NCBI GenBank assembly: GCA_007376805.1
Contig: VMGX01000001.1
Coordinates: 1,034-65,033 of the forward strand
Direction of reading: 5' to 3'
Source: Parcubacteria group bacterium Athens0714_16
GTDB taxonomy: Bacteria > Patescibacteriota > Minisyncoccia > Phycocordibacterales > 21-14-all-36-13
DNA: 64,000 nt
Shown here in pieces: positions 3,771 to 61,415 of the stretch (position 1 is its first letter; each line of letters begins with the position of its first letter). The notes beneath the pieces are model-generated. The model saw only the letters and a program-made list of their open reading frames with translations, did not search any database and had not been told where the DNA came from. A program made the translations under genes and the position numbers.

Positions 3771-6700
3771 ATGAATCCCAAATTTACACATCTCCACACT
3801 CACTCTCATTACAGCTTGCTTAATGCATTACCAAAAATACCGGAACTTGTTTCTGCTACAAAAGAAAAAAATATGAGCGCCGTTGCTCTTACTGATAACG
3901 GAAATCTTTATGGTGCAATTGAATTTTATAAAGAATGTAAAAAAGAAAACATAAAACCAATTATAGGTGTTGATTTTTATGTTGCACTTCGCACACGGCA
4001 CGATAGACAACCAGGGATTGATAGTAAAAGATACAGATTGGTGTTGTTAGCAAAAAATCATGATGGATATAAAAATTTAATAAAATTAGTAAGTGATTCA
4101 CATCTTACTGGTTTCTATTACAAACCAAGAATAGACAAAGAACTAATGAAAAAATATTCTGAAGGACTTATTGCAATAATTCCATCTTTTAGTGGAGAAA
4201 TAATAGAAAAAGTAAAAAACAGTGATTTTGAAACAGCAAAGAAAATTTTAAATGAGTATGAAGAAATTTATGGAAAAGAAAATTTGTTTGTAGAAATTAC
4301 ACATCACCCAGAAATTGACGGACATAATTTTATAACGAAAAAAACAATTGAATTTGCAAAAGACCTGTCCGCCTCTGGCGGAAGTGGAGCAAATTTAGTG
4401 GCATCACATGATGTTTATTATATACACCCAGAAGATAGAGAGGCACGAAATACACTTTTATCTATACAAACAAATCTTGACTTTGGCTCCAATAAACGAC
4501 TAACAAGCGAAGATGAGGACTTTTCTTTTATAGGACAAGAACAGGCAGAAAAATATTTTGCTGAAATTCCCGAAGCACTTGAAAACACACAAAAAATTTC
4601 TAACATGTGTAATTTAGAAATTAGTCTTGGTGGCTGGATCTTCCCTGAGGCAAAATCTACCAACGGATTAAACCATGATGACGAATTGTATAAATTAATA
4701 TACGACGGTTTAATTGAAAGAAAATTGGAAAAAACAGAAGAAGTTTTAAAAAGAATTGAATACGAGTATGGAATAATAAAAAAGAAAGGATATTGTCCAT
4801 ACTTTTTGGTTGTTAGTGATTTATTAAAATTCGCATTAAAAAATAACATCTTTACAAACACCAGGGGTTCTGCTGCTGGCTCACTTGTTTCTTATTTAAT
4901 TGGAATAACAAATATAAATCCTCTTGAATATCAAATTCCATTTGAAAGATTTTTAAATCCCGATAGGCCTTCGCTCCCCGATATAGATATTGATATGGCA
5001 GATAACAGGCGAGATGAAATGGTTCAATATGCAAAAGAAAAATATGGAGAAGACAGAGTCGCACAAATTGGGACATTCGGAACAATGGCAGCACGAGGAG
5101 CAATTCGTGACACAGCACGAGCATTAGGTTATCAATATGAAATCGGAGATAAAATATCAAAACAGATTCCTCTTGGGAAACAAGGTTTCCCAATGACAAT
5201 AGATAGAGCACTGGATGAAAATTCTGATTTGAAAAAAATGTACGCGACAGATAAAGACGTTAAAAAAATTGTAGATATGGCAAGAAAAATTGAAGGATGT
5301 GCAAGACACATTTCCGTTCATGCAGCAGGTATCGTTATCTCTCCAATTCCAGTAACAGAGTTCACACCAATTCAATTTGATCCGAAGGGTGGAAAATTAA
5401 TAACACAATATGATATGTATTCTATAGACCCCGACTATGGTGGTGTAGGACTTTTAAAATTTGATTTTCTTGGTTTAAAAAATCTCTCAATACTCGCAAG
5501 CTCAGTTGATTTAGTAAAAAAAATAAAAGGTGTGGATATTGATATACAAAATATTCAAATTGATGACAAAAAAACATTTGAGATGTTGGCTCGTGGAGAA
5601 ACTATGGGCGTATTTCAAATGGGTAGTGATGGGATGACAAAATATTTAAAAGATTTAAGACCGACCGAAATAAGAGATATAAACGCAATGATTGCTCTTT
5701 ATCGTCCCGGCCCGATGGCTTTTATTCCTGAATATATTAAAAGAAAAAGAAATCCTAAACTTGTAAAATATATTGACGAGAGATTAAGAAAAATTCTTGA
5801 AAAAACTTATGGGATTTTGATTTACCAGGACGATATTCTACTTATAGTCACAGAGCTTGCTGGCTATTCTTGGGCAGAGGCAGATAAATTTAGAAAAGCT
5901 GTTGGGAAAAAAATTCCACAAGAGATGCAAGCGCAAAAAGAAAAGTTCACCAGTGGTTGTATCAAAAACGGGATGAAACCAGATGTTGCAAAACAACTTT
6001 GGGAAATGATTGAAACATTCGCGGCATATGGTTTTAATAAGGCCCATTCTGTAAGTTACGGCAGAGTTACATATCAAACTGCTTACATGAAAGCTAATTT
6101 CCCTGTTATTTATATGTCCGCACTTCTAACCGCAGATGCAGGAGATGTTGAAAAAATTTCCGAAACAATTAACGAATGTAAAAGAATGGGGATTGAAGTT
6201 TTGCCCCCAAACATAAATGAAAGTTTTGGTAATTTTACTGTTATAGAAGAAGACGGAAAAGACAAAATTCGTTTTGGACTTTACAGTATCAAAAACTTTG
6301 GGGAAGGTATCGCTGATAAAATTATTACTACAAGAAAAGAGAGCGGTAGATTTAACTCGCTGGAAGATTTTTTAAATAAAGTAAAAGATAAAAATGTAAA
6401 TAAAAAATCTTTAGAAGCACTCATAAAATGTGGTGCCATGGATGAACTTGGTGAACGAGGACAAATGTTTGAAAATGTAGAAGATTTATTGTTGTATCAT
6501 CGCGAAGGGAAAAAAACAGACGAATCACAGGAGTCGTTGTTTGGTTTGATGGCAGATAGTTCAACAATACCAAAACTAAAACTCAATGAATCAATGCCCG
6601 CAACACAAACTGATAAGCTAACATGGGAAAAGGAACTGCTTGGTTTATACATTTCCGGACACCCACTTGATAAATTCAAAAACCAGCTCGAAAAAAGACA

Positions 6701-6998
6701 ATATTCCATAAAAAGAGTTCTAGATGGTCTGGAAGATGGTATGCAAGTAGCCGTTGCGGGTATAATAAATGAAGTTAAATACATAAACACGAAAAGCGCC
6801 GAAAAAATGGCTTTTGTTAATTTTTCAGATTTTACGGGAACTATTGAGATTGTTGTATTCCCAAAAATATTTGAAAAATATAAAGAATTTTTAGAACCTA
6901 ATTTATGTGTAGTAATAAAAGGACGAATTTCTTACAGAAATGATTCAATAAGTTTGCTCGCGGAAGCTGTAAAAAAATTAGAGGAAGAAAAAAAATAA
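3771..6998 (+). CDS. dnaE: DNA polymerase III alpha subunit
   Basis: PHP motif FTHLHTHSHYSLL directly after ATG 3771. Conserved GSAAGSLVSY, PDIDID, YRPGPM and HSVSYG motifs are present. The track start at 3696 is an unlikely hydrophobic extension. Confidence 0.95.
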   Translation: MNPKFTHLHTHSHYSLLNALPKIPELVSATKEKNMSAVALTDNGNLYGAIEFYKECKKENIKPIIGVDFYVALRTRHDRQPGIDSKRYRLVLLAKNHDGYKNLIKLVSDSHLTGFYYKPRIDKELMKKYSEGLIAIIPSFSGEIIEKVKNSDFETAKKILNEYEEIYGKENLFVEITHHPEIDGHNFITKKTIEFAKDLSASGGSGANLVASHDVYYIHPEDREARNTLLSIQTNLDFGSNKRLTSEDEDFSFIGQEQAEKYFAEIPEALENTQKISNMCNLEISLGGWIFPEAKSTNGLNHDDELYKLIYDGLIERKLEKTEEVLKRIEYEYGIIKKKGYCPYFLVVSDLLKFALKNNIFTNTRGSAAGSLVSYLIGITNINPLEYQIPFERFLNPDRPSLPDIDIDMADNRRDEMVQYAKEKYGEDRVAQIGTFGTMAARGAIRDTARALGYQYEIGDKISKQIPLGKQGFPMTIDRALDENSDLKKMYATDKDVKKIVDMARKIEGCARHISVHAAGIVISPIPVTEFTPIQFDPKGGKLITQYDMYSIDPDYGGVGLLKFDFLGLKNLSILASSVDLVKKIKGVDIDIQNIQIDDKKTFEMLARGETMGVFQMGSDGMTKYLKDLRPTEIRDINAMIALYRPGPMAFIPEYIKRKRNPKLVKYIDERLRKILEKTYGILIYQDDILLIVTELAGYSWAEADKFRKAVGKKIPQEMQAQKEKFTSGCIKNGMKPDVAKQLWEMIETFAAYGFNKAHSVSYGRVTYQTAYMKANFPVIYMSALLTADAGDVEKISETINECKRMGIEVLPPNINESFGNFTVIEEDGKDKIRFGLYSIKNFGEGIADKIITTRKESGRFNSLEDFLNKVKDKNVNKKSLEALIKCGAMDELGERGQMFENVEDLLLYHREGKKTDESQESLFGLMADSSTIPKLKLNESMPATQTDKLTWEKELLGLYISGHPLDKFKNQLEKRQYSIKRVLDGLEDGMQVAVAGIINEVKYINTKSAEKMAFVNFSDFTGTIEIVVFPKIFEKYKEFLEPNLCVVIKGRISYRNDSISLLAEAVKKLEEEKK
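4368..4382. repeat. GC-rich hairpin H4 inside the dnaE CDS
   Basis: tccgcctctggcgga, encodes part of SASGGSG. Confidence 0.75.
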
Positions 6999-7112: not shown

Positions 7113-7739
7113 TTAATGAAAAAAATATGGACGCTTATTCTCAATAAAGCGAGAAAATAAAAAGAAATTTTCTGTTTCTAAAATTTCTCTTGAAATTTCT
7201 ACTGCATCGTCATGTGAAATATGACTCTGCAAAATTGCTAAAGCGAGCATAAGAATACTATCACCCCTATCTCTTTCTGGTAAACCAGAAAAAGAGTATC
7301 TCCGCATGGCTGGTCTTGCAAAAATTGCGCCACCAAATTCATTTTTTTCTTCCCTTTGTGACTCAAAACTAGTTACGTGGCCCTCCGGTAGATGAACAAA
7401 TAACCGTTCTCCTTTTTCTCGAGAATAAAATATGTATTTATTCTCTTTTTCGGGTCGAATAATACCAATTTCTGCCCAAAGTTGGACATCATACTGTTTT
7501 TCACCAAATATACATAGATACCCACCAGCCCTGTTTTCCCAATCTTTTTTTATCTCGTCTGAGAAATTACCATTTTGGAAAAAAAGAACCAATTCTTTCA
7601 AAAGAAAGTACGCCCTTTCTAAAATGAATGTTTCTTCATGTTTTGAATATAATGATTTGATTATCATTTTTATAACTCCCAATTTATTTGTGAAAGAAAT
7701 ATCTGTTTTATATATACACTTTAAAATAAGCCCCGTCAA
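7113..7739 (-). CDS. Hypothetical protein
   Basis: 208-aa ORF with no recognisable motif. Start codon uncertain. Confidence 0.35.
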   Translation of the reverse strand: MTGLILKCIYKTDISFTNKLGVIKMIIKSLYSKHEETFILERAYFLLKELVLFFQNGNFSDEIKKDWENRAGGYLCIFGEKQYDVQLWAEIGIIRPEKENKYIFYSREKGERLFVHLPEGHVTSFESQREEKNEFGGAIFARPAMRRYSFSGLPERDRGDSILMLALAILQSHISHDDAVEISREILETENFFLFSRFIENKRPYFFH

Positions 7740-7786
7740 TCCAGCACTTATTTTATATATTTAAAAAAAATGTTAATATAATTCTT

Positions 7787-9580
7787 ATGGAAAAAGACCA
7801 GAAAATACAAAATATAAGACATTCGCTTTCGCATTTACTCGCGTCAGCTGTTTTAAGCTTATATCCAGATACAAAAATGACAATCGGTCCAGCTATTGAA
7901 AACGGATTCTATTATGATTTTGATTTTACAACACCGATTTCAGACAAAGATTTGCCAAAGATAGAAAAGAAGACGAAAGAAATATTAAAAAAATGGGATA
8001 AATTTGAAAAAATTGATGTTTCAGAAAAAGAAGCAAAAGAAAAATTTAAAGATAATCCATACAAATTAGAACTTATAGAAGACCTAATAAAAGATGGACA
8101 AAAAATAACATTTTATAAATCAGGTGATTTTGTTGACCTATGTGGTGGTGGTCACGCAGAAAGTGCAAAAGATATAAAACCCGATTCTTTTAAATTAAAT
8201 AAAACTGCTGGTGCATATTGGAGAGGAAGTGAAAAAAATAAAATGCTCACTCGTATATATGGTCTTGCCTTTGAAACAAAAAAAGAACTTGATGAATATA
8301 TACAAATGCAAGAAGAGGCAAAAAAAAGAGACCACAGAAAATTAGGAAAAGAATTAGATTTGTTCCACATGGACGATATGGTTGGTTTGGGGCTTCCTCT
8401 TTGGCATCCTAAGGGTGCATTGTTATGGAGAGTTATTGAAGAATTTTGGTATAAAGAACATTTAAAAAATGGGTATGATTTAGTAAGAAGTCCACATATC
8501 GGAAATAGAACTCTTTGGGAAACATCTGGCCATTGGGGTTTTTATAATAAATCAATGTATCCACCACTTGAAGTTGGACAAACTTTGGAAGAAAGACAAC
8601 AAAATAAAAAAACCGAAGTTTCTGAAGAATATCTTTTGAAACCGATGAATTGTCCATTTCATATAGAAATTTACAAAAATAATCCAAAATCTTATAGGAA
8701 TTTACCATTGCGTTGGGCAGAGTGTGGAACCGTTTATAGATTTGAAAAAAGAGGAGAGCTTTCTGGATTAACAAGAGTCCGTGGTTTTACACAAGATGAT
8801 GCACACATAATATGCAGAAAGGACCAGGTAGAAGAAGAACTAAAAAGAGTCATTGATTTTATTTTGTTTATATACAAATCATTCGGTTTTGATATTGAAA
8901 AAGTAAAAGTGTATCTTTCGTTGAGAGACCCAAAAAATAAGGACAAATATGCCGGTGGAGATGCTGGTTGGGAGTTTACCGAGACTATGTTAAGGAAAGT
9001 TGCAATAGATAAAAAATTAAATTTTAAAGAGGAATTAGGTGAAGCTGCTTTTTATGGACCAAAACTTGATTTTAAAATTGAAGATGCTCTTGGACGGGAA
9101 TGGCAATGTTCAACACTACAATTTGATTTTAACTTAACAGAGAGATTTGATTTAACATTTGTAAACGCAAAAGGTGAACCGGAAAGACCTTATATGCTCC
9201 ATAGAGCATTGTTTGGAAGTTTTGAAAGGTTTATAGGTCTTTTGATAGAACATTACGCTGGAGCGTTTCCTGTGTGGCTATCACCTGTTCAGATTGTAGT
9301 TCTTCCTATTTCTGAAAAACATTTAGAATATGCAAAAAATATATTTGAAAAACTAAAAGAAAATGAATTGAGAGCTGAATTAGATGATTCAAATGAGACA
9401 CTTGGCAAAAAAATAAGAAATTCAAAATTACAGAAAAATCCTTATATGATTATTGTTGGCGATAATGAAGTAGAAAATAAATCTGTAACTCTTGAATCAC
9501 GAGACGGAACAGGTATGAAAGATATAAAATTAGAAGAAGCAATTGAAAAACTAAAAAAAGAAATTACCGAAAAAAAATGA
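7787..9580 (+). CDS. thrS: Threonyl-tRNA synthetase (lacks N-terminal TGS domain)
   Basis: SHLLA, CGGGH, class II motifs (FRNE-like YRFEKRGELSGLTRVRGFTQDDAHI), and a C-terminal anticodon-binding domain. Confidence 0.95.
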   Translation: MEKDQKIQNIRHSLSHLLASAVLSLYPDTKMTIGPAIENGFYYDFDFTTPISDKDLPKIEKKTKEILKKWDKFEKIDVSEKEAKEKFKDNPYKLELIEDLIKDGQKITFYKSGDFVDLCGGGHAESAKDIKPDSFKLNKTAGAYWRGSEKNKMLTRIYGLAFETKKELDEYIQMQEEAKKRDHRKLGKELDLFHMDDMVGLGLPLWHPKGALLWRVIEEFWYKEHLKNGYDLVRSPHIGNRTLWETSGHWGFYNKSMYPPLEVGQTLEERQQNKKTEVSEEYLLKPMNCPFHIEIYKNNPKSYRNLPLRWAECGTVYRFEKRGELSGLTRVRGFTQDDAHIICRKDQVEEELKRVIDFILFIYKSFGFDIEKVKVYLSLRDPKNKDKYAGGDAGWEFTETMLRKVAIDKKLNFKEELGEAAFYGPKLDFKIEDALGREWQCSTLQFDFNLTERFDLTFVNAKGEPERPYMLHRALFGSFERFIGLLIEHYAGAFPVWLSPVQIVVLPISEKHLEYAKNIFEKLKENELRAELDDSNETLGKKIRNSKLQKNPYMIIVGDNEVENKSVTLESRDGTGMKDIKLEEAIEKLKKEITEKK

Positions 9581-29861: not shown

Positions 29862-29961
29862 AAAAATTAATTTCTAAGACAGAAAATAGGGACTCGGTCA
29901 CAAATCACTAATTATTTTTACAACAAAGTTGAAAAAATAAATAAGTGTTTGCCGACCCCAA

Positions 29962-30019
29962 CTCAGCGACAAGCACTCACTTTGCTCGTCTTGTATACCG
30001 CTTCCGTCTTTCGAGTTCC
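29962..30019 (-). repeat. Partial X-like repeat about 60 nt downstream of tRNA-Gln
   Basis: GGAACTCGAAAGACGGAAGCGGTATACAAGACGAGCAAAGTGAGTGCTTGTCGCTGAG matches the first ~58 nt of X with 5 mismatches by eye. Confidence 0.8.
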
Positions 30020-30079
30020 AATCCACACGAGCAATCGAGTGGAATTTTTAACACATAGCTATGTTAAAAATTTCGCTTG

Positions 30080-56814: not shown

Positions 56815-57141
56815 ATGACATTAAGACAAGAAAAAGTAAGGGGACTTATAACAGAGCTTTCTGCTGAATTTATACAATACCAAGCAAACACAAAATCAAT
56901 GATAACAGTTACTGATTGTAATGTTTCTAGTGATTTGAAAAAATCTACAATATTTGTAACTGTCTTCCCTGCTGAAAATGAAAAAGAAGCAATGGATTTT
57001 TTAAAAAGAAAACGAAGAGAGTTTAGAGAATTTATTAAATCAAAAATGAAGTTTATGAGAAGTGTTCCATTTTTTGATTTTGAAATAGATAAAGGGGAAA
57101 AGAACAGACAAAGAATTGATGAAATCTCAAATAAAATATAG
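56815..57141 (+). CDS. rbfA: Ribosome-binding factor A
   Basis: 108 aa, in the conserved position after infB, with the ITVTDCNVSSDLKKSTIFV pattern. Confidence 0.8.
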   Translation: MTLRQEKVRGLITELSAEFIQYQANTKSMITVTDCNVSSDLKKSTIFVTVFPAENEKEAMDFLKRKRREFREFIKSKMKFMRSVPFFDFEIDKGEKNRQRIDEISNKI

Positions 57142-57166
57142 AATAGATTGTGTTTCTTTGATAAAC

Positions 57167-57241
57167 GGCCGCGTAGCCAAGTGGTAAGGCGAGAGTCTGC
57201 AAAACTCTTACACATGGGTTCGATTCCCGTCGCGGCCTCCA
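57167..57241 (+). tRNA. tRNA-Cys(GCA), CCA encoded
   Basis: GGCCGCG UA GCC AAGUGGUAA GGC G AGAGU CUGCAAA ACUCU UACAC AUGGG UUCGAUU CCCGU CGCGGCC U CCA. Confidence 0.9.
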
Positions 57242-57256
57242 TAGCATGTTGAAATT

Positions 57257-57338
57257 GCCCGGGTGGCGGAACTGGTATACGCGCACGACTTAAAATCGTG
57301 TCCTGTATGGGATGCGGGTTCGATTCCCGCCCCGGGCA
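57257..57338 (+). tRNA. tRNA-Leu(UAA)
   Basis: GCCCGGG UG GCG GAACUGGUAUA CGC G CACGA CUUAAAA UCGUG UCCUGUAUGGGAU GCGGG UUCGAUU CCCGC CCCGGGC A. Confidence 0.9.
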
Positions 57339-57507
57339 CAAAGTAATTGGGGAATAAGCAAATTTCCTCCAGAGACGGACAAGTATTTGCTTATGTCGGG
57401 AATCGAATGATTTTTTATGTTGAGCGTAGCGAAACAAAAAATCACGGGTGAGCAAAGCGAAATTCCCCCTGCCTGCGCAGGCAGGGCCCCGGGCACAAAG
57501 TGATTGG
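57339..57507 (+). repeat. tRNA-Leu(UAA) 3'-flank element ending in a duplicate of the tRNA 3' end
   Basis: 57329..57350 (gccccgggcacaaagtaattgg) recurs at 57486..57507 with 1 mismatch. The interior has stems ATAAGCAAAT/ATTTGCTTAT, TGATTTTTT/AAAAAATCA and GGGAAT/ATTCCC. Confidence 0.8.
57467..57486. repeat. GC-rich hairpin H3 (perfect 7-bp stem) inside the tRNA-Leu(UAA) flank element
   Basis: ccctgcctgcgcaggcaggg. Confidence 0.75.
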
Positions 57508-57562
57508 AGAGAAAACAAATTCAAAATGTTTTTTTGATTTTTTAATTAAAAACTTTTTATAT

Positions 57563-57635
57563 CCGCCCGTAGCTCAGTTGGTAGAGCAGCTGCCTCTTAA
57601 GCAGACGGTCGTAGGTTCAAATCCTACCGGGCGGA
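57563..57635 (+). tRNA. tRNA-Lys(CUU), C1:G72 acceptor
   Basis: CCGCCCG UA GCUC AGUUGGUA GAGC A GCUGC CUCUUAA GCAGA CGGUC GUAGG UUCAAAU CCUAC CGGGCGG A. Confidence 0.85.
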
Positions 57636-57778
57636 CATGAAGTGTCCTGCGCGAGAAAACAAATTTATTTGTTTTTGTGTAGGATTTGAAAGGAATTTCG
57701 TTATTGAGTCCGAGTTTTTGCAAGGACGAAATCGAAATTCACCAGCGACCGTTGGGCGAAAATCCTACCGGGCGGACA
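57636..57778 (+). repeat. tRNA-Lys 3'-flank element ending in a duplicate of the tRNA 3' end
   Basis: 57619..57637 (aaatcctaccgggcggaca) recurs exactly at 57760..57778. Confidence 0.85.
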
Positions 57779-57838
57779 AAAAATAGTATAGTGGTCATAA
57801 AATATAAGTTTATTTTCAATTATTTTTTTAAATTAATA

Positions 57839-57868
57839 TTGGCAAACGCTATGTGTCTTAGGTATAAT
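57839..57868 (+). promoter_or_regulatory. Promoter of the LAGLIDADG gene (TTGGCA-N18-TATAAT), probably giving a leaderless transcript
   Basis: ttggcaaacgctatgtgtcttaggtataat. The ATG is 6 nt downstream of the -10 element. Confidence 0.55.
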
Positions 57869-57874
57869 ATAAAT

Positions 57875-58507
57875 ATGGAAAGATTAAAAAAAGTAAAAAT
57901 AAAATGGAGTGCAAATTTCGCTTATGCAATTGGTTTAATTACTACTGATGGTAATTTATCGCCAGATGGAAGGCATTTAAACATCACATCAAAAGATTTA
58001 AAATTGATTACGGATTTTAAAAAATGCCTCAATATCAAAAATAAAATTGGAAAAAAAGCACGAGGACATAGTAAAGAAAAAAAATATTTTGTTGTACAAT
58101 TTGGAGATGTTAATTTTTATGAGTTTTTGTTATCTATAGGATTAATGGCAGCAAAATCAAAAACATTATCTAAAATAGATATACCTAAAAAATATTTTGT
58201 TGATTTTTTAAGAGGATGTATAGACGGGGATGGGAATATTAGTATAAGTTATCATCCAGAAAGTAAACACCCGCAATTAAAAATAAGATTGGCTTCTGCA
58301 AGTTTAAATTTTCTTGAGTGGATTGAGAATGAAGTTTATAAACATATAAAAACAAACGGTGGTTGGATTTCTAAAGATAAATCAGTGTTTACTCTAAATT
58401 ATGCTAAAAAGGACTCTGTTAAATTATTAAAATTCATGTATTATAAAGGAGATTATTATTATTTAAAAAGAAAGTATCGGATTGGAAGAATGTTCTTAAA
58501 TAAATAA
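57875..58507 (+). CDS. Free-standing LAGLIDADG homing endonuclease (double motif)
   Basis: FAYAIGLITTDGNL and FLRGCIDGDGNI motifs. ATG 57875 lies 6 nt after TATAAT (57863-57868), so the mRNA is probably leaderless. The track start at 57686 overlaps tRNA-flank sequence and is rejected. Confidence 0.8.
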   Translation: MERLKKVKIKWSANFAYAIGLITTDGNLSPDGRHLNITSKDLKLITDFKKCLNIKNKIGKKARGHSKEKKYFVVQFGDVNFYEFLLSIGLMAAKSKTLSKIDIPKKYFVDFLRGCIDGDGNISISYHPESKHPQLKIRLASASLNFLEWIENEVYKHIKTNGGWISKDKSVFTLNYAKKDSVKLLKFMYYKGDYYYLKRKYRIGRMFLNK

Positions 58508-58526
58508 TTGGTTTTTAATGTTTTAT

Positions 58527-58607
58527 GCCGGGGTGGCGAAATGGTAGACGCGCTACGCTTAGGACGTAGTTTCGAAAGGAGTGGAGGTTCAAGTCCTCTC
58601 CCCGGCA
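58527..58607 (+). tRNA. tRNA-Leu(UAG)
   Basis: GCCGGGG UG GCG AAAUGGUAGA CGC G CUACG CUUAGGA CGUAG UUUCGAAAGGAGU GGAGG UUCAAGU CCUCU CCCCGGC A. Confidence 0.9.
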
Positions 58608-58758
58608 CATGAACGAAGTGAGAGTGACGAGAGTAAACAAATTTATTTGTTTGCGAGAGAGGATTTGAAAATCTTTTCGTTATTTATGAAGAGCTTTGCT
58701 CTGAATAAATCGAAAAGATGAACAGAATCTGTAAGATTCAAGTCCTCTCCCCGGCACC
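58608..58758 (+). repeat. tRNA-Leu(UAG) 3'-flank element ending in a duplicate of the tRNA 3' end (distal copy followed by CCA)
   Basis: 58588..58608 (ttcaagtcctctccccggcac) recurs exactly at 58738..58758. Homologous to the Lys element. Confidence 0.85.
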
Positions 58759-58811
58759 AGTAGTAACTTGTTGAAAATTGAAAATTAAAAAATTAAAATA
58801 AGAAATTTGCT

Positions 58812-58834
58812 TTGGCAAACGCTATGTGTCTTAG
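58812..58834 (+). promoter_or_regulatory. Second copy of the 23-nt promoter-like box, with no gene behind it
   Basis: ttggcaaacgctatgtgtcttag is identical to 57839..57861, followed by catatag. Confidence 0.4.
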
Positions 58835-58898
58835 CATATAGAAACAATCTTAGCAAAAAATAAGCTTAATTGAAAGATTTGAATGTTCTTTAAAAAAC

Positions 58899-58925
58899 AA
58901 AATCCGCATAATGCGGATTTTGTTT
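58899..58925. terminator. Hairpin terminator between the tRNA cluster and the pilin-like array
   Basis: aaaatccgcat aa tgcggatttt with flanking A/T runs. Confidence 0.65.
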
Positions 58926-58949
58926 TTAAATTTCAAATTTAAATTTTGT

Positions 58950-59186
58950 TTATGCTCCTATTGTATTTTTTATGATTCCTATAATCCCATAAACAGCAAA
59001 CATGATAAACATCCCGACTATTCCCCATATCATATGTTGCTTACCCTGTTCTCTTTGTTCATCACTATCAGCCTTTATAACATACTGGGTAACTCCCCAG
59101 ATGAAATAAATCAGCGCAAAAACAAAAAGTAAGAGTATTATCGGATTTATTATTTGATCACTTATTTTATTCAATAGGTCTGTCAT
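58950..59186 (-). CDS. TrbC/VirB2-like small two-TM protein (paralog 1, no signal peptide)
   Basis: Shares ...A.SDEQREQGKQHMIWGIVGMFIMF with the five genes upstream. Confidence 0.5.
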   Translation of the reverse strand: MTDLLNKISDQIINPIILLLFVFALIYFIWGVTQYVIKADSDEQREQGKQHMIWGIVGMFIMFAVYGIIGIIKNTIGA

Positions 59187-59226
59187 AAATATATAATTTC
59201 TATAAGCCTAAGACTTTTATACTTTT

Positions 59227-59583
59227 CTAGTAGGTTGTGCCTGGAAGTGTAACAGTTGTGTCTGCGTCTCCTGGTACTTCAAGTGTTCCTTGTAGTAAGT
59301 AAACTACTCCCCAGACTGAAACCATAACAAACAAAGCAATTATCCCGTATATCATTATGCTTTTTCCTTCCTTTGCTTTTGCTTCATCTCCCGCATTCAA
59401 GATATATTGTGCAAGGCCGTAGAAGAAATATAGAAGAGCCAATGTCATAATTATAGGAACAAGTGTATCAATCCATCCTCCTACTTTTTCAATTATAGTC
59501 AATGGAGCATTATCATTAGTAACAGCAAGAGTAACAAATGGTAATAAAAACGCCATTGAAGATATTGATAGTATTTTTTTCAT
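59227..59583 (-). CDS. TrbC/VirB2-like small membrane protein (paralog 2)
   Basis: Signal peptide, TM, NAGDEAKAKEGKSIMIYGIIALFVMVSVWG. Confidence 0.55.
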   Translation of the reverse strand: MKKILSISSMAFLLPFVTLAVTNDNAPLTIIEKVGGWIDTLVPIIMTLALLYFFYGLAQYILNAGDEAKAKEGKSIMIYGIIALFVMVSVWGVVYLLQGTLEVPGDADTTVTLPGTTY

Positions 59584-59656
59584 AATTATTATTATTTACT
59601 AATTGTTAATTTAAATTTTACGACCTTTTTTATTTTACACAATAACGTGTTAATAA

Positions 59657-60004
59657 TTAATCGACTTGTATGGTTGGAACTGTCGGCGATATTGATTCTG
59701 TTACTCCAAACGTTCTCTGTAGAAAACCAACCAATCCCCACACTGAAATCATAACAAACAAGGCAATTATTCCATATATCATTATGCTTTTCCCTTCTTT
59801 TGCTTTTGATTCGTCCCCCGCATTCATAATATATGTTGCAAGACCATAAAAGAAGTATAAAAGGGCTAAGGTCATAACTATGGGAACAAGCGCTTCAACC
59901 CATGCTTGTAATTTCCCAATCAAAGTTTCGGCCGTTGTTGAATCGGCTGCAAATAAAAATAATGGAGCTAAAAAAATTGATGATACTAAAGCTATTTTTT
60001 TCAT
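59657..60004 (-). CDS. TrbC/VirB2-like small membrane protein (paralog 3)
   Basis: From ATG 60002-60004 (MKKIALVSS). NAGDESKAKEGKSIMIYGIIALFVMISVWG is nearly identical to the core of paralog 2. Confidence 0.55.
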   Translation of the reverse strand: MKKIALVSSIFLAPLFLFAADSTTAETLIGKLQAWVEALVPIVMTLALLYFFYGLATYIMNAGDESKAKEGKSIMIYGIIALFVMISVWGLVGFLQRTFGVTESISPTVPTIQVD

Positions 60005-60177
60005 AATATTTTTGTGTTTTTTTAACACATTTTTGATTAAAATCTCCTAATTTTTTTATCAAAAGATTATATTAATAATAATGTAATAAAGCCCTTTAAT
60101 CAATAATAAACTGTGGATTAAACAGACATAATTCTTTAAAATCTCATTAAGAGATTTTAAAGTCAAAGATTTTCAAA

Positions 60178-60492
60178 CTAAATACCAAATGTTTTTCTGA
60201 GAACACCCACCAGCGCCCAAATCGAGAAAATAACAAACAAACCAACTACCCCATAAAGCATTTTATTTCTACCCTCTTCTAATGCCTTCGTATCTCCTGC
60301 AGAACGAATAAATTCTGTAAGACCAAACAAAAACCATAAAAAAGAAAGACTGATTAGCAATGGAACAATAGAATTAATTAAAAGTTCTGCCGTGCTGTTT
60401 GCTATCTCTTTAAAATTACTTCCCGTTATAGTTGCCGCGCCAACAATCGAAGGTATCGTAAAAGAAAAAATGAGTAAGATTATTTTTTTCAT
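60178..60492 (-). CDS. TrbC/VirB2-like small membrane protein (paralog 4)
   Basis: Signal peptide, SAGDTKALEEGRNKMLYGVVGLFVIFSIWA. Confidence 0.55.
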   Translation of the reverse strand: MKKIILLIFSFTIPSIVGAATITGSNFKEIANSTAELLINSIVPLLISLSFLWFLFGLTEFIRSAGDTKALEEGRNKMLYGVVGLFVIFSIWALVGVLRKTFGI

Positions 60493-60562
60493 GATTTTGA
60501 TATATTGTAAATATTAAAAAATTTAACACCCTCCTTTAAAAGCTCTGGACGAGCTTTTAAAG

Positions 60563-60937
60563 TTATTTAAGATTATTAATAGTTCCACTAACAACAGCAG
60601 CTATCAAATTTGCCCCCAAAATAACAGCCGCGCCAATAACAACATAAAGTAATATTTCTTTTGCTTTTGTTATTTCTTCTGGCTTCCCCTGGGCCTTCAC
60701 AAACAAAAAACCAGCATAAATTATAAAAAATATAATTACCACACTACCTATGGGTGTCACTATATCTGTCAAAATTTTTGTTATTAGAGCCGGAACGGTT
60801 TTGGTTGTGCCCAGCGGATTAGTTAATTGTCCTGTCACATTTACATCCTCAGCATTAGCCCAGTATAAAGGAAAAAGCAACAAAAAAGATGCCATGCCCC
60901 ATGCTACTATTTTAATTTTTTCTATTTTAAAATACAT
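60563..60937 (-). CDS. TrbC/VirB2-like small membrane protein (paralog 5)
   Basis: AQGKPEEITKAKEILLYVVIGAAVILGA. Same architecture, more divergent. Confidence 0.5.
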   Translation of the reverse strand: MYFKIEKIKIVAWGMASFLLLFPLYWANAEDVNVTGQLTNPLGTTKTVPALITKILTDIVTPIGSVVIIFFIIYAGFLFVKAQGKPEEITKAKEILLYVVIGAAVILGANLIAAVVSGTINNLK

Positions 60938-60989
60938 ATTTTTTAATTGTTAAATCTATTAATTTAAATTAAATATTGTGAGTTAAATA

Positions 60990-61415
60990 TTATTTTAAAA
61001 CTTTTAAATAACTACCATCAATAAGTAATGCGTTCGCAATTGTATTAACGATAAGCCACGCAGCTAAAACTATAATAAATCCTATTAAAACATTCAAAAA
61101 AATTGTATGGGCTTTTTCTATTTGTCCCGGTTTCCCGCCGGCTGTTAAATATAAAACACCTGCATATGTAAACATTCCTACCGCAATTGGAGCAGCTATA
61201 TAAAAGGCAAATGTCATTATATTTTGAACAAGTGTTATCATGTCATTAAAACCACATCCACCGTTTGCATTTGTGCAAGTAGAAGCATCAATTATACCAT
61301 TTGGTGGTGGCGGAGCAGTTTCTGTCGCAAATAAGATAACTGGACTAAGTAATATAAATAACAAAACCAAAAACATTGGCAAAAAAAAGAGAATTTTTTT
61401 ATTTTTATTTATCAT
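60990..61415 (-). CDS. TrbC/VirB2-like small membrane protein (paralog 6)
   Basis: TAGGKPGQIEKAHTIFLNVLIGFIIVLAAW. Same architecture, with a Cys pair in the exposed segment. Confidence 0.5.
   Translation of the reverse strand: MINKNKKILFFLPMFLVLLFILLSPVILFATETAPPPPNGIIDASTCTNANGGCGFNDMITLVQNIMTFAFYIAAPIAVGMFTYAGVLYLTAGGKPGQIEKAHTIFLNVLIGFIIVLAAWLIVNTIANALLIDGSYLKVLK

Follow-up and report, generated by a model that had tools for sequence, protein, structure and literature searches.

A LAGLIDADG gene and its upstream box at tRNA-Leu(UAG)

The DNA analysed here is a stretch of 64,000 nucleotides (nt), hereafter the window, from contig VMGX01000001.1 of Parcubacteria group bacterium Athens0714_16 (Patescibacteriota). 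It contains a cluster of transfer RNA (tRNA) genes in which an open reading frame (ORF) for a double-motif LAGLIDADG endonuclease is placed between an insert that follows tRNA-Lys and an intact tRNA-Leu(UAG) gene, an arrangement noted in a first-pass annotation of the sequence and confirmed here (Table 1). The RbfA gene a short way upstream of this region is 100% identical to the one recorded for Athens0714_16. The conserved order of the cluster is Cys, Leu(UAA), Lys, endonuclease and Leu(UAG), and just upstream of the ORF there is a 23-nt box, TTGGCAAACGCTATGTGTCTTAG. The comparisons described below identify this box, from its sequence, as the relic 5′ half of a tRNA-Leu copy, and on balance they favour a free-standing homing-endonuclease gene of the LAGLIDADG type that is embedded in a tRNA-Leu(UAG) gene duplicated in part.

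The two motifs of the ORF product are GLITTDGNL (residues 20-28) and GCIDGDGNI (residues 114-122). The product matches the Pfam family LAGLIDADG_3 (E 3.7e-9), while LAGLIDADG_1 covers its second half (residues 113-185), and its top sequence match among solved structures is I-Tsp061I (2dch, E 0.004). An AlphaFold2 (AF2) model based on 24 homologs reached a predicted local distance difference test (pLDDT) value of 90.7 and a predicted template modelling (pTM) score of 0.89. With this model Foldseek again placed I-Tsp061I first (template modelling (TM) score 0.71, E 5e-11), followed by I-AniI, I-DmoI, I-SceI, intein endonucleases and the LAGLIDADG domain of WhiA; across I-Tsp061I, I-AniI, I-DmoI and I-SceI the E values ranged from 5e-11 to 1e-5. 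Three features typical of the LAGLIDADG superfamily were found in the product: two motifs within one chain, an acidic residue ending each motif helix (D25 and D119) and, according to AF2 and Foldseek, a pseudo-symmetric alpha-beta-beta-alpha-beta-beta-alpha fold that occurs twice. Both aspartates are invariant across the 24 aligned homologs, in which 45 columns are invariant in all.

Pfam detected only LAGLIDADG domains in the product, with neither an intein (Hint) domain nor an extra DNA-binding domain or C-terminal helix-turn-helix (HTH), and the ORF has its own start and stop. Around the ORF no group I or group II intron model matched at E <=10 or at gathering thresholds, and no Rfam families other than tRNA were found. 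The earlier statement that the gene lies outside any intron or intein therefore holds. An exact-sequence look-up of the product returned no record. The ORF is probably a free-standing LAGLIDADG homing endonuclease and, with its confidently modelled fold and both motif aspartates kept, a candidate nuclease of the active type. The product does not show the two marks of a WhiA-like domesticated regulator, the loss of catalytic acidic residues and the gain of a C-terminal HTH: both aspartates are invariant and no further domain is present.

Homologs of the protein numbered 2338 at E <=1e-3. A profile search gave 309 clusters at 50% identity (E <=1e-30), and at least 583 species genomes encode a relative. 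For comparison we used the best 80 loci, from 80 related species, of which 77 could be tested for the box; related loci are referred to by L numbers. The box was present upstream of the ORF in 60 of the 77 testable loci, with the consensus ATTGGCAGACGCTATATGTTTTAG, and 22 of its 23 bases are common to the window and L001 at a synonymous divergence (dS) of ~0.9.

In the window, the TTGGCA that opens the box (57839-57844) and the TATAAT 18 nt further on agree with a promoter at 11 of 12 positions and form the top promoter-like site in a promoter scan of 57100-59000. TTGGCA would act as the -35 element of a sigma-70 promoter with TATAAT as its -10 hexamer. The ATG (57875) begins 6 nt past TATAAT, as the first-pass annotation had it, and in 36 of the 47 loci with a recognisable hexamer the distance from its end to the start codon is 6-7 nt. 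As such a spacing leaves no room for a Shine-Dalgarno site, it supports the proposal that the gene is leaderless, and the messenger RNA probably begins at or near the start codon.

The 23-mer occurs exactly twice in the window, both times on the + strand, where the chance expectation is zero matches even with 3 mismatches allowed. The copy upstream of the ORF runs from the D-loop of a tRNA-Leu along the 3′ strand of its D-stem and the 5′ strand of its anticodon stem, ending at the anticodon with CTTAG; TTGGCA corresponds to the D-loop, and TATAAT stands directly past the anticodon. Using a hidden Markov model (HMM) built from the functional tRNA-Leu genes, nhmmer matched 29 of 77 upstream regions, always placing the box in the same register (tRNA positions ~13-37), and matched 0 of 770 shuffled controls. 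The end of the box also covaries with the anticodon of the downstream tRNA: each of the 53 loci with Leu(TAG) as partner has TTAG or TTGG there, and each of the seven with Leu(GAG) has TTGAG (GAG type 7/7 vs 0/53, Fisher ~3e-9, our own calculation). The Rfam tRNA model did not match the relic of L002; half a tRNA has too few base pairs for an Rfam score, for which reason nhmmer and anticodon covariation were used.

Near-complete relic 5′ halves, reaching at or near tRNA position 1, were found in L002, L076, L025, L058, L006 and L007, and they agree with real tRNA-Leu genes at 27-30 of 34-39 positions. These six relics are closer to the tRNAs of other genomes (27-30 identical positions) than to those of their own (24-26), and the relic therefore appears to travel with the gene. 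The “promoter box” of the first-pass annotation consequently needs correction: the promoter-like match at copy 1 stands, while the 23-mer itself is, as far as its sequence allows it to be read, a pseudo-tRNA half, and its second copy was not called as a promoter.

Table 1. Coordinates of the endonuclease gene, the box copies and other features of the window
Feature	Position	Strand	Basis or remark
Box copy 1, predicted tRNA-Leu(UAG) 5′-half relic	57839..57861	+	exact 23-mer; nhmmer, anticodon covariation
Putative -10 hexamer TATAAT	57863..57868	+	18 nt past TTGGCA, 6 nt ahead of ATG
Predicted LAGLIDADG endonuclease gene, free-standing, double-motif	57875..58507	+	210 amino acids; ORF listing, Pfam, AF2/Foldseek
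tRNA-Leu(UAG), intact	58527..58608	+	19 nt past ORF stop; tRNA scan, Rfam
tRNA-Lys(CUU), upstream neighbour	57563..57636	+	tRNA scan
tRNA-Leu(UAA)	57257-57339	+	tRNA preceding the insert at 57340..57492
tRNA 3′-flank insert after Leu(UAA)	57340..57492	+	found by eye
tRNA 3′-flank insert after Lys	57637..57778	+	ends in 19-nt copy of tRNA 3′ end
tRNA 3′-flank insert after Leu(UAG)	58609..58757	+	ends in 21-nt copy of tRNA 3′ end
Degenerate insert after tRNA-Gln	~29880-30079	-	found by eye
Box copy 2, “orphan”	58812..58834	+	identical 23-mer, then CATATA (poor -10)
Terminator-like hairpin AAAATCCGCA-TAA-TGCGGATTTT, then GTTTTT	58899..58927	.	found by eye; not called by scan

Linkage to tRNA-Leu, selection and distribution

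That the gene is tied to tRNA genes, as had been supposed, is borne out by the comparative set: in 71 of the 80 loci a tRNA-Leu (TAG or GAG) is located on the same strand, -98 to +72 nt from the stop codon. In the most distant of the 80 loci this tRNA is Leu(GAG). The ORF overlaps the tRNA gene in 52 loci, its stop codon falling within the first 5-98 nt of that gene, most often at nt 10, 13 or 24. Among the nine other loci, five have an adjacent but inverted tRNA-Leu and four have lost the linkage; the ORF keeps its box even when the tRNA has been inverted or lies at another place (L027, L032, L043, L047, L064 and L066). The conserved partner of the gene is evidently the tRNA-Leu 3′ of the ORF and not the inserts at tRNA 3′ ends. 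Because the 19-nt gap in the window leaves tRNA-Leu(UAG) no room for a promoter of its own, the ORF and the tRNA would be co-transcribed.

Among the 120 matches listed, nearly all homologs have ~210 amino acids and 58-90% identity, and those listed with a source name are all from Patescibacteria. The record titles of L006, L008-L010, L055, L058, L060, L075, L076 and others read “Saccharibacteria”, “Gammaproteobacteria”, “Armatimonadota”, “Segetibacter” or “Omnitrophota”; given their Paceibacteria-type gene order, these are probably mislabelled or mis-binned contigs. Divergent members of the family also precede tRNA-Leu, namely Leu(UAG) in L149 and L151 and Leu(GAG) in L152. Two further relatives were observed beside other tRNAs: in L146 (2501-3133) the gene lies directly 5′ of tRNA-Phe (3141), and in L157 (4366-5121, 37% identity) directly 5′ of tRNA-Cys (5041), with a TATAAT 6 nt before the ATG. 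Lodging at the 5′ edges of tRNA genes may be general to this branch of the LAGLIDADG family.

The ORF is intact in 79 of the 80 loci. The ratio of nonsynonymous to synonymous substitution rates (dN/dS) is 0.07-0.16 at a dS of 0.8-0.9 (window, L001 and L082), which indicates that the protein is under strong purifying selection. An unbiased sample of loci anchored on RbfA contained empty sites. Three loci (L156, L158 and L159) have the Cys-Leu(UAA)-Lys-Leu(UAG) cluster with neither gene nor box, their gaps between Lys and Leu(UAG) measuring 3, 65 and 55 nt respectively, so that both were absent from three of the four syntenic tRNA clusters sampled. The same site is filled in the window, L001, L009, L051, L061 and others, and the locus thereby shows the presence/absence polymorphism at one genomic site that characterises homing genes. 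By these comparisons the relic and the gene are inserted as one discrete unit, patchy in its distribution, directly on the 5′ side of tRNA-Leu(UAG).

Several measures of inheritance were compared with those of host genes. For the same pairs of genomes the mean identity was 55% for the endonuclease, 49% for IF-2 and 46% for RbfA, while the Spearman correlation of the endonuclease with the host genes was 0.39-0.46, compared to 0.61 between IF-2 and RbfA. Nearest neighbours by endonuclease and by host gene agreed in 12 of 24 cases. The clade of L035, L064 and L068 was discordant, with IF-2 73% identical and the endonuclease 45-55%. The higher identity of the endonuclease, its weaker correlation with the host genes and the discordant clade are hints of mobility.

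tRNA 3′-flank inserts, further box copies and neighbouring genes

The inserts that follow tRNA genes in the window have counterparts in related loci. In total 26 of ~215 tRNAs (~12%) are followed, within 70-215 nt downstream, by a 15-24 nt copy of their own 3′ end; the window inserts after Leu(UAA) and Gln are additional to this count. Insert-bearing tRNAs in the loci examined include those for Leu, Lys, Cys, Gly, Phe, His, Val and Trp. The first-pass annotation also named a tRNA-Ala gene beside Lys and Leu; neither the tRNA scan nor Rfam found a tRNA-Ala in the window. All inserts share one layout, which consists, in order, of an optional terminator hairpin, an antisense copy, a two-hairpin core and a sense copy of the tRNA 3′ end, the antisense segment corresponding to the last ~20 nt of the tRNA and often being split by a hairpin of ~25 nt. 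Pairing of inserts with their own tRNA (-25.6 kcal/mol) was stronger than with other tRNAs (-18.8 kcal/mol), a result this extreme arising in 0 of 5000 permutations, and the consensus fold has compensatory changes in 18 of 27 pairs. A strand test of the helices favoured the tRNA-sense strand only weakly (p 0.013), G-U counts being similar, and does not separate RNA structure from DNA structure.

No Rfam family matches the inserts, and no larger autonomous versions were found within 8 kb in the loci searched. The 57 viral-contig matches to a 15-mer of the insert core were discarded, being within chance expectation by our own estimate. Further inserts were observed in L004, L006, L011, L012, L022, L024, L027, L049, L054, L064, L073, L074, L076, L077, L082 and L155. 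L082 has tandem and hybrid copies and, at 4340-4375, between its Leu(UAA) inserts and the real tRNA-Lys, a fragment that resembles the 5′ end of tRNA-Lys (ATCCGCCCGTAGCTTAGCTGG), a further partial copy of a tRNA within the cluster.

The first-pass annotation suggested that the endonuclease and the inserts form one mobile unit and asked for a survey of their co-occurrence in related genomes. In the loci compared, only ~6 of the 77 tRNA-Leu genes linked to the endonuclease carry an insert, and the inserts are for this reason regarded, on comparative grounds, as a structured family separate from the endonuclease unit. In L001, the closest relative, the Lys and Leu(UAG) insert sites are empty and the flanks match the window sequence past the duplicate. 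The inserts may represent an undescribed class of mobile or regulatory elements; a structured family found after ~12% of tRNA genes is a lead of its own.

The second copy of the 23-mer starts 54 nt past the 3′-end duplicate of the tRNA-Leu(UAG) insert. Its recurrence on the + strand with no gene behind it, reported in the first-pass annotation, was confirmed: the ORF listing contains no credible ORF after it, and the promoter scan mentioned above did not call it. The explanation offered at the time, the loss of a second endonuclease unit, fared less well. At 45 nt past copy 2 there is a 17/20 match to the last 20 nt of the ORF (p ~0.05 to 0.3), which we rejected as a remnant of a second endonuclease because it is not significant, and the case for a lost second gene is weak. 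The 23-mer was found, exactly or nearly so, at several other sites in the genomes of the two closest relatives, and ten or more sites carry it in the lineage of the window, whereas in the other 80 species the 4 kb around the gene contain no second copy. By its distribution the box has multiplied in a lineage-specific manner, and copy 2 is one of many such copies.

Details of these copies come from metagenome relatives of the window (L081-L087). In L082, tandem arrays of boxes flank the gene on both sides (4880-5284 and 6610-6818), with units that consist of a box plus two alternating segments of ~70 nt, some with terminator-like hairpin ends. Solo copies share ~15 further bases, CATATATACACTACA (L081 10177-10288; L083-L087), and in L083-L086 a CAT, an ATG on the opposite strand, directly abuts the solo box, with no ORF called. 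Inserts and extra box copies are phenomena apart from the endonuclease unit.

In the window, box copy 2 is followed by ~65 nt and then by the terminator-like hairpin (58835-58927, +). Together they could form a small transcription unit, though the -10 is poor; Rfam gave only sub-threshold, terminator-driven matches to this segment. The hairpin separates the tRNA cluster from six tandem genes on the - strand (58950-61415) that converge on it and encode membrane proteins resembling pilins of type IV secretion systems (PF18895, TrbC/VirB2). In L158 and L159, too, the tRNA cluster is followed by similar arrays of pilin-like genes. A LOOT RNA (RF03000, 90 bits) at 7704-7823 (-) of L011 is unrelated to these findings.

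Origin of the unit, alternative explanations and related systems

If the gene is a homing endonuclease lodged in a partly duplicated tRNA-Leu(UAG) gene, its origin would lie in the entry of an endonuclease gene into a tRNA-Leu copy, at its anticodon loop (around position 36/37), while the tRNA function was kept by a second, intact copy on the 3′ side of the inserted gene. The relic-derived promoter would fire, transcription beginning at or near the ATG, and RNase P would free tRNA-Leu(UAG) from the joint transcript; where the stop codon lies within the tRNA, the same cut would also sever the message. The unit of relic and gene may have spread through double-strand-break repair among genomes that share the Cys-Leu-Lys-Leu tRNA cluster, and would now be inherited mostly vertically inside clades. 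The 23-bp relic would have been retained as a promoter and possibly as an operator of the enzyme, a role that is plausible because the whole relic, including its spacer, is conserved and has about the size of a LAGLIDADG site.

A number of observations weigh against this explanation. There are only three empty sites, and their genomes have IF-2 49-56% identical to that of gene carriers, a distance like that between gene-carrying clades. In shallow clades the endonuclease follows IF-2 and exceeds it in conservation, which would also fit a host function, and gene and box are intact in the nine loci uncoupled from a co-oriented tRNA-Leu. The anticodon arms of tRNA-Leu are identical in loci with the gene (L024, L033, L041) and without it (L156, L159), which argues against a target there, since the host's own intact gene would then contain the site as well. 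Relic identity is 67.6% to the tRNA of the own genome and 66.5% to that of others (p ~0.06), which argues against a relic refreshed by recent invasions; the idea that the relic is regenerated from the resident tRNA at each invasion was rejected on the same ground. Finally, the spacer bases of the relic are conserved beyond what a plain promoter needs.

Given the plausible operator role, the main alternative is a domesticated LAGLIDADG protein, that is, a sequence-specific binding or nicking host factor such as an autoregulator of the tRNA-Leu(UAG) unit, with the box as its operator; we regard it as possible but clearly the less probable account. Domestication would agree well with the low dN/dS, the near-complete set of intact ORFs, a protein whose conservation between given genomes exceeds that of IF-2 and RbfA, the tracking of IF-2 in shallow clades, the persistence of the gene away from the tRNA and a box of suitable size kept across its whole spacer. 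There are also precedents: I-TevI acts as an autorepressor, and WhiA (DUF199), which appears among the fold matches, is a LAGLIDADG-derived regulator that lost the catalytic acidic residues and gained a C-terminal HTH. However, the absence of gene and box from most of the sampled syntenic clusters means that the gene does not belong to the core genome, the two motif aspartates show no change among the 24 aligned homologs, no DNA-binding domain has been added, one clade is discordant with its host, and paralogues adjoin tRNA-Phe and tRNA-Cys. In the lineage of the window, where the box has multiplied, a domesticated protein would act at many sites. An improbable extension of this idea is that a co-opted LAGLIDADG factor, with the 23-bp box as its site, governs its own promoter and the supply of tRNA-Leu(UAG) and works at multiple loci in that lineage. 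If true, the multi-locus role would be that of a regulator or of a programmed break-maker driving local amplification, and the protein would be a LAGLIDADG protein that serves many genomic sites through a tRNA-gene mimic.

It is very doubtful that the endonuclease and the tRNA 3′-flank inserts form one mobile unit, in which the enzyme would cut uninterrupted tRNA 3′ regions and so drive the spread of the inserts. The window gene is indeed flanked by two inserts, both gene and inserts involve partial tRNA duplications, inserts are common in gene-carrying clades (the 26 tRNAs noted above), and in L082 the sequence around the gene has been duplicated via recombination between inserts. Yet most linked tRNA-Leu genes have no insert, inserts follow the tRNAs for Gly, Phe, His, Val, Trp, Cys and Gln away from the gene, and L001 has the gene next to empty insert sites. 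Moreover, an insert leaves the first tRNA copy intact, so that a target in the 3′ region would survive, and the conserved linkage concerns the 5′ edge of tRNA-Leu. An action of the enzyme on the inserts in trans is conceivable.

Less probable still is a passive hitch-hiker, a functionless protein whose ORF stays open since tRNA-Leu(UAG) needs its promoter and translation-protected read-through; the frequent overlap of ORF and tRNA and the lack of a separate tRNA promoter would suit it, but the protein shows selection at the amino-acid level, 45 invariant columns including the aspartates and a confident fold, and the gene has stayed intact with the tRNA inverted or at another place. That the gene lies in an intron still being spliced from the tRNA-Leu(UAG) anticodon loop can hardly be entertained: although the relic ends at the anticodon, the site of bacterial tRNA group I introns (PMC13011429), a ribozyme cannot fit into the 13 nt from relic to ATG and the <=19 nt (often a negative distance) from ORF to tRNA, a complete uninterrupted tRNA-Leu and not a 3′ half follows the ORF, group I and II models have no match, and the anticodon-stem strand of the relic is unable to pair with the 3′ strand of the downstream tRNA.

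A homing-endonuclease gene lodged in a partly duplicated tRNA-Leu gene would be a natural test case of a selfish nuclease gene entering an essential RNA gene without an intron. The gene appears to capture the expression of an essential tRNA and to persist under strong selection in very small genomes, as part of a widespread module (the at least 583 species mentioned above) of relic promoter, probably leaderless ORF and an intact, usually overlapped tRNA-Leu. The family also provides a large set of compact LAGLIDADG enzymes for target discovery.

Among known systems, the archaeal I-Tsp061I and I-DmoI, monomeric enzymes with a double motif, resemble the window protein in length (~200 amino acids), in their two acidic LAGLIDADG motifs and in fold, at just ~16% identity. 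They are encoded inside ribosomal RNA (rRNA) introns and cut the intron-less rRNA gene, whereas the window gene is free-standing beside a tRNA. LAGLIDADG genes of Patescibacteria, a phylum also referred to as the Candidate Phyla Radiation (CPR), have been described inside insertions and introns of 16S and 23S rRNA genes (PMC11270868, PMC11809585, PMC11608272), and a survey of tRNA introns in Patescibacteria reported no LAGLIDADG-bearing tRNA intron and nothing at tRNA-Leu(UAG) (PMC13011429). These rRNA-insertion endonucleases have phylum and superfamily in common with the window gene and differ in location. In the literature searched, LAGLIDADG genes of Patescibacteria are reported only inside rRNA genes, which makes the tRNA-Leu context new, and no description was found of the arrangement of gene, relic and tRNA-Leu or of the inserts.

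Some homing-endonuclease ORFs of fungal mitochondria, free-standing or fused to genes, bring along or leave behind a partial copy of their host gene, as at Allomyces atp6. The likeness lies in an insertion after which the host segment exists in a truncated and an intact copy; in the Allomyces type this concerns the 3′ ends of protein genes, in the window unit a tRNA 5′ half that would double as a promoter. With WhiA the window protein shares a bacterial LAGLIDADG fold selected outside any intron, but it retains both aspartates and has no added domain. T4 SegB is a free-standing phage GIY-YIG endonuclease in a tRNA gene cluster. It resembles the window gene in being a free-standing gene between conserved genes of such a cluster, with presence/absence polymorphism, and differs in that the window gene is a cellular LAGLIDADG gene fused to a relic tRNA half and an intact tRNA, while no partial duplication of its target is known for SegB. 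Free-standing endonucleases and “intronless homing” beside conserved genes have been reviewed (PMC2988022), and SegB is also treated in PMC13096335. Compared with these systems, the novelty of the locus would lie in a cellular and widely conserved LAGLIDADG gene that has a pseudo-tRNA half as its predicted promoter and an intact tRNA overlapping its 3′ end.

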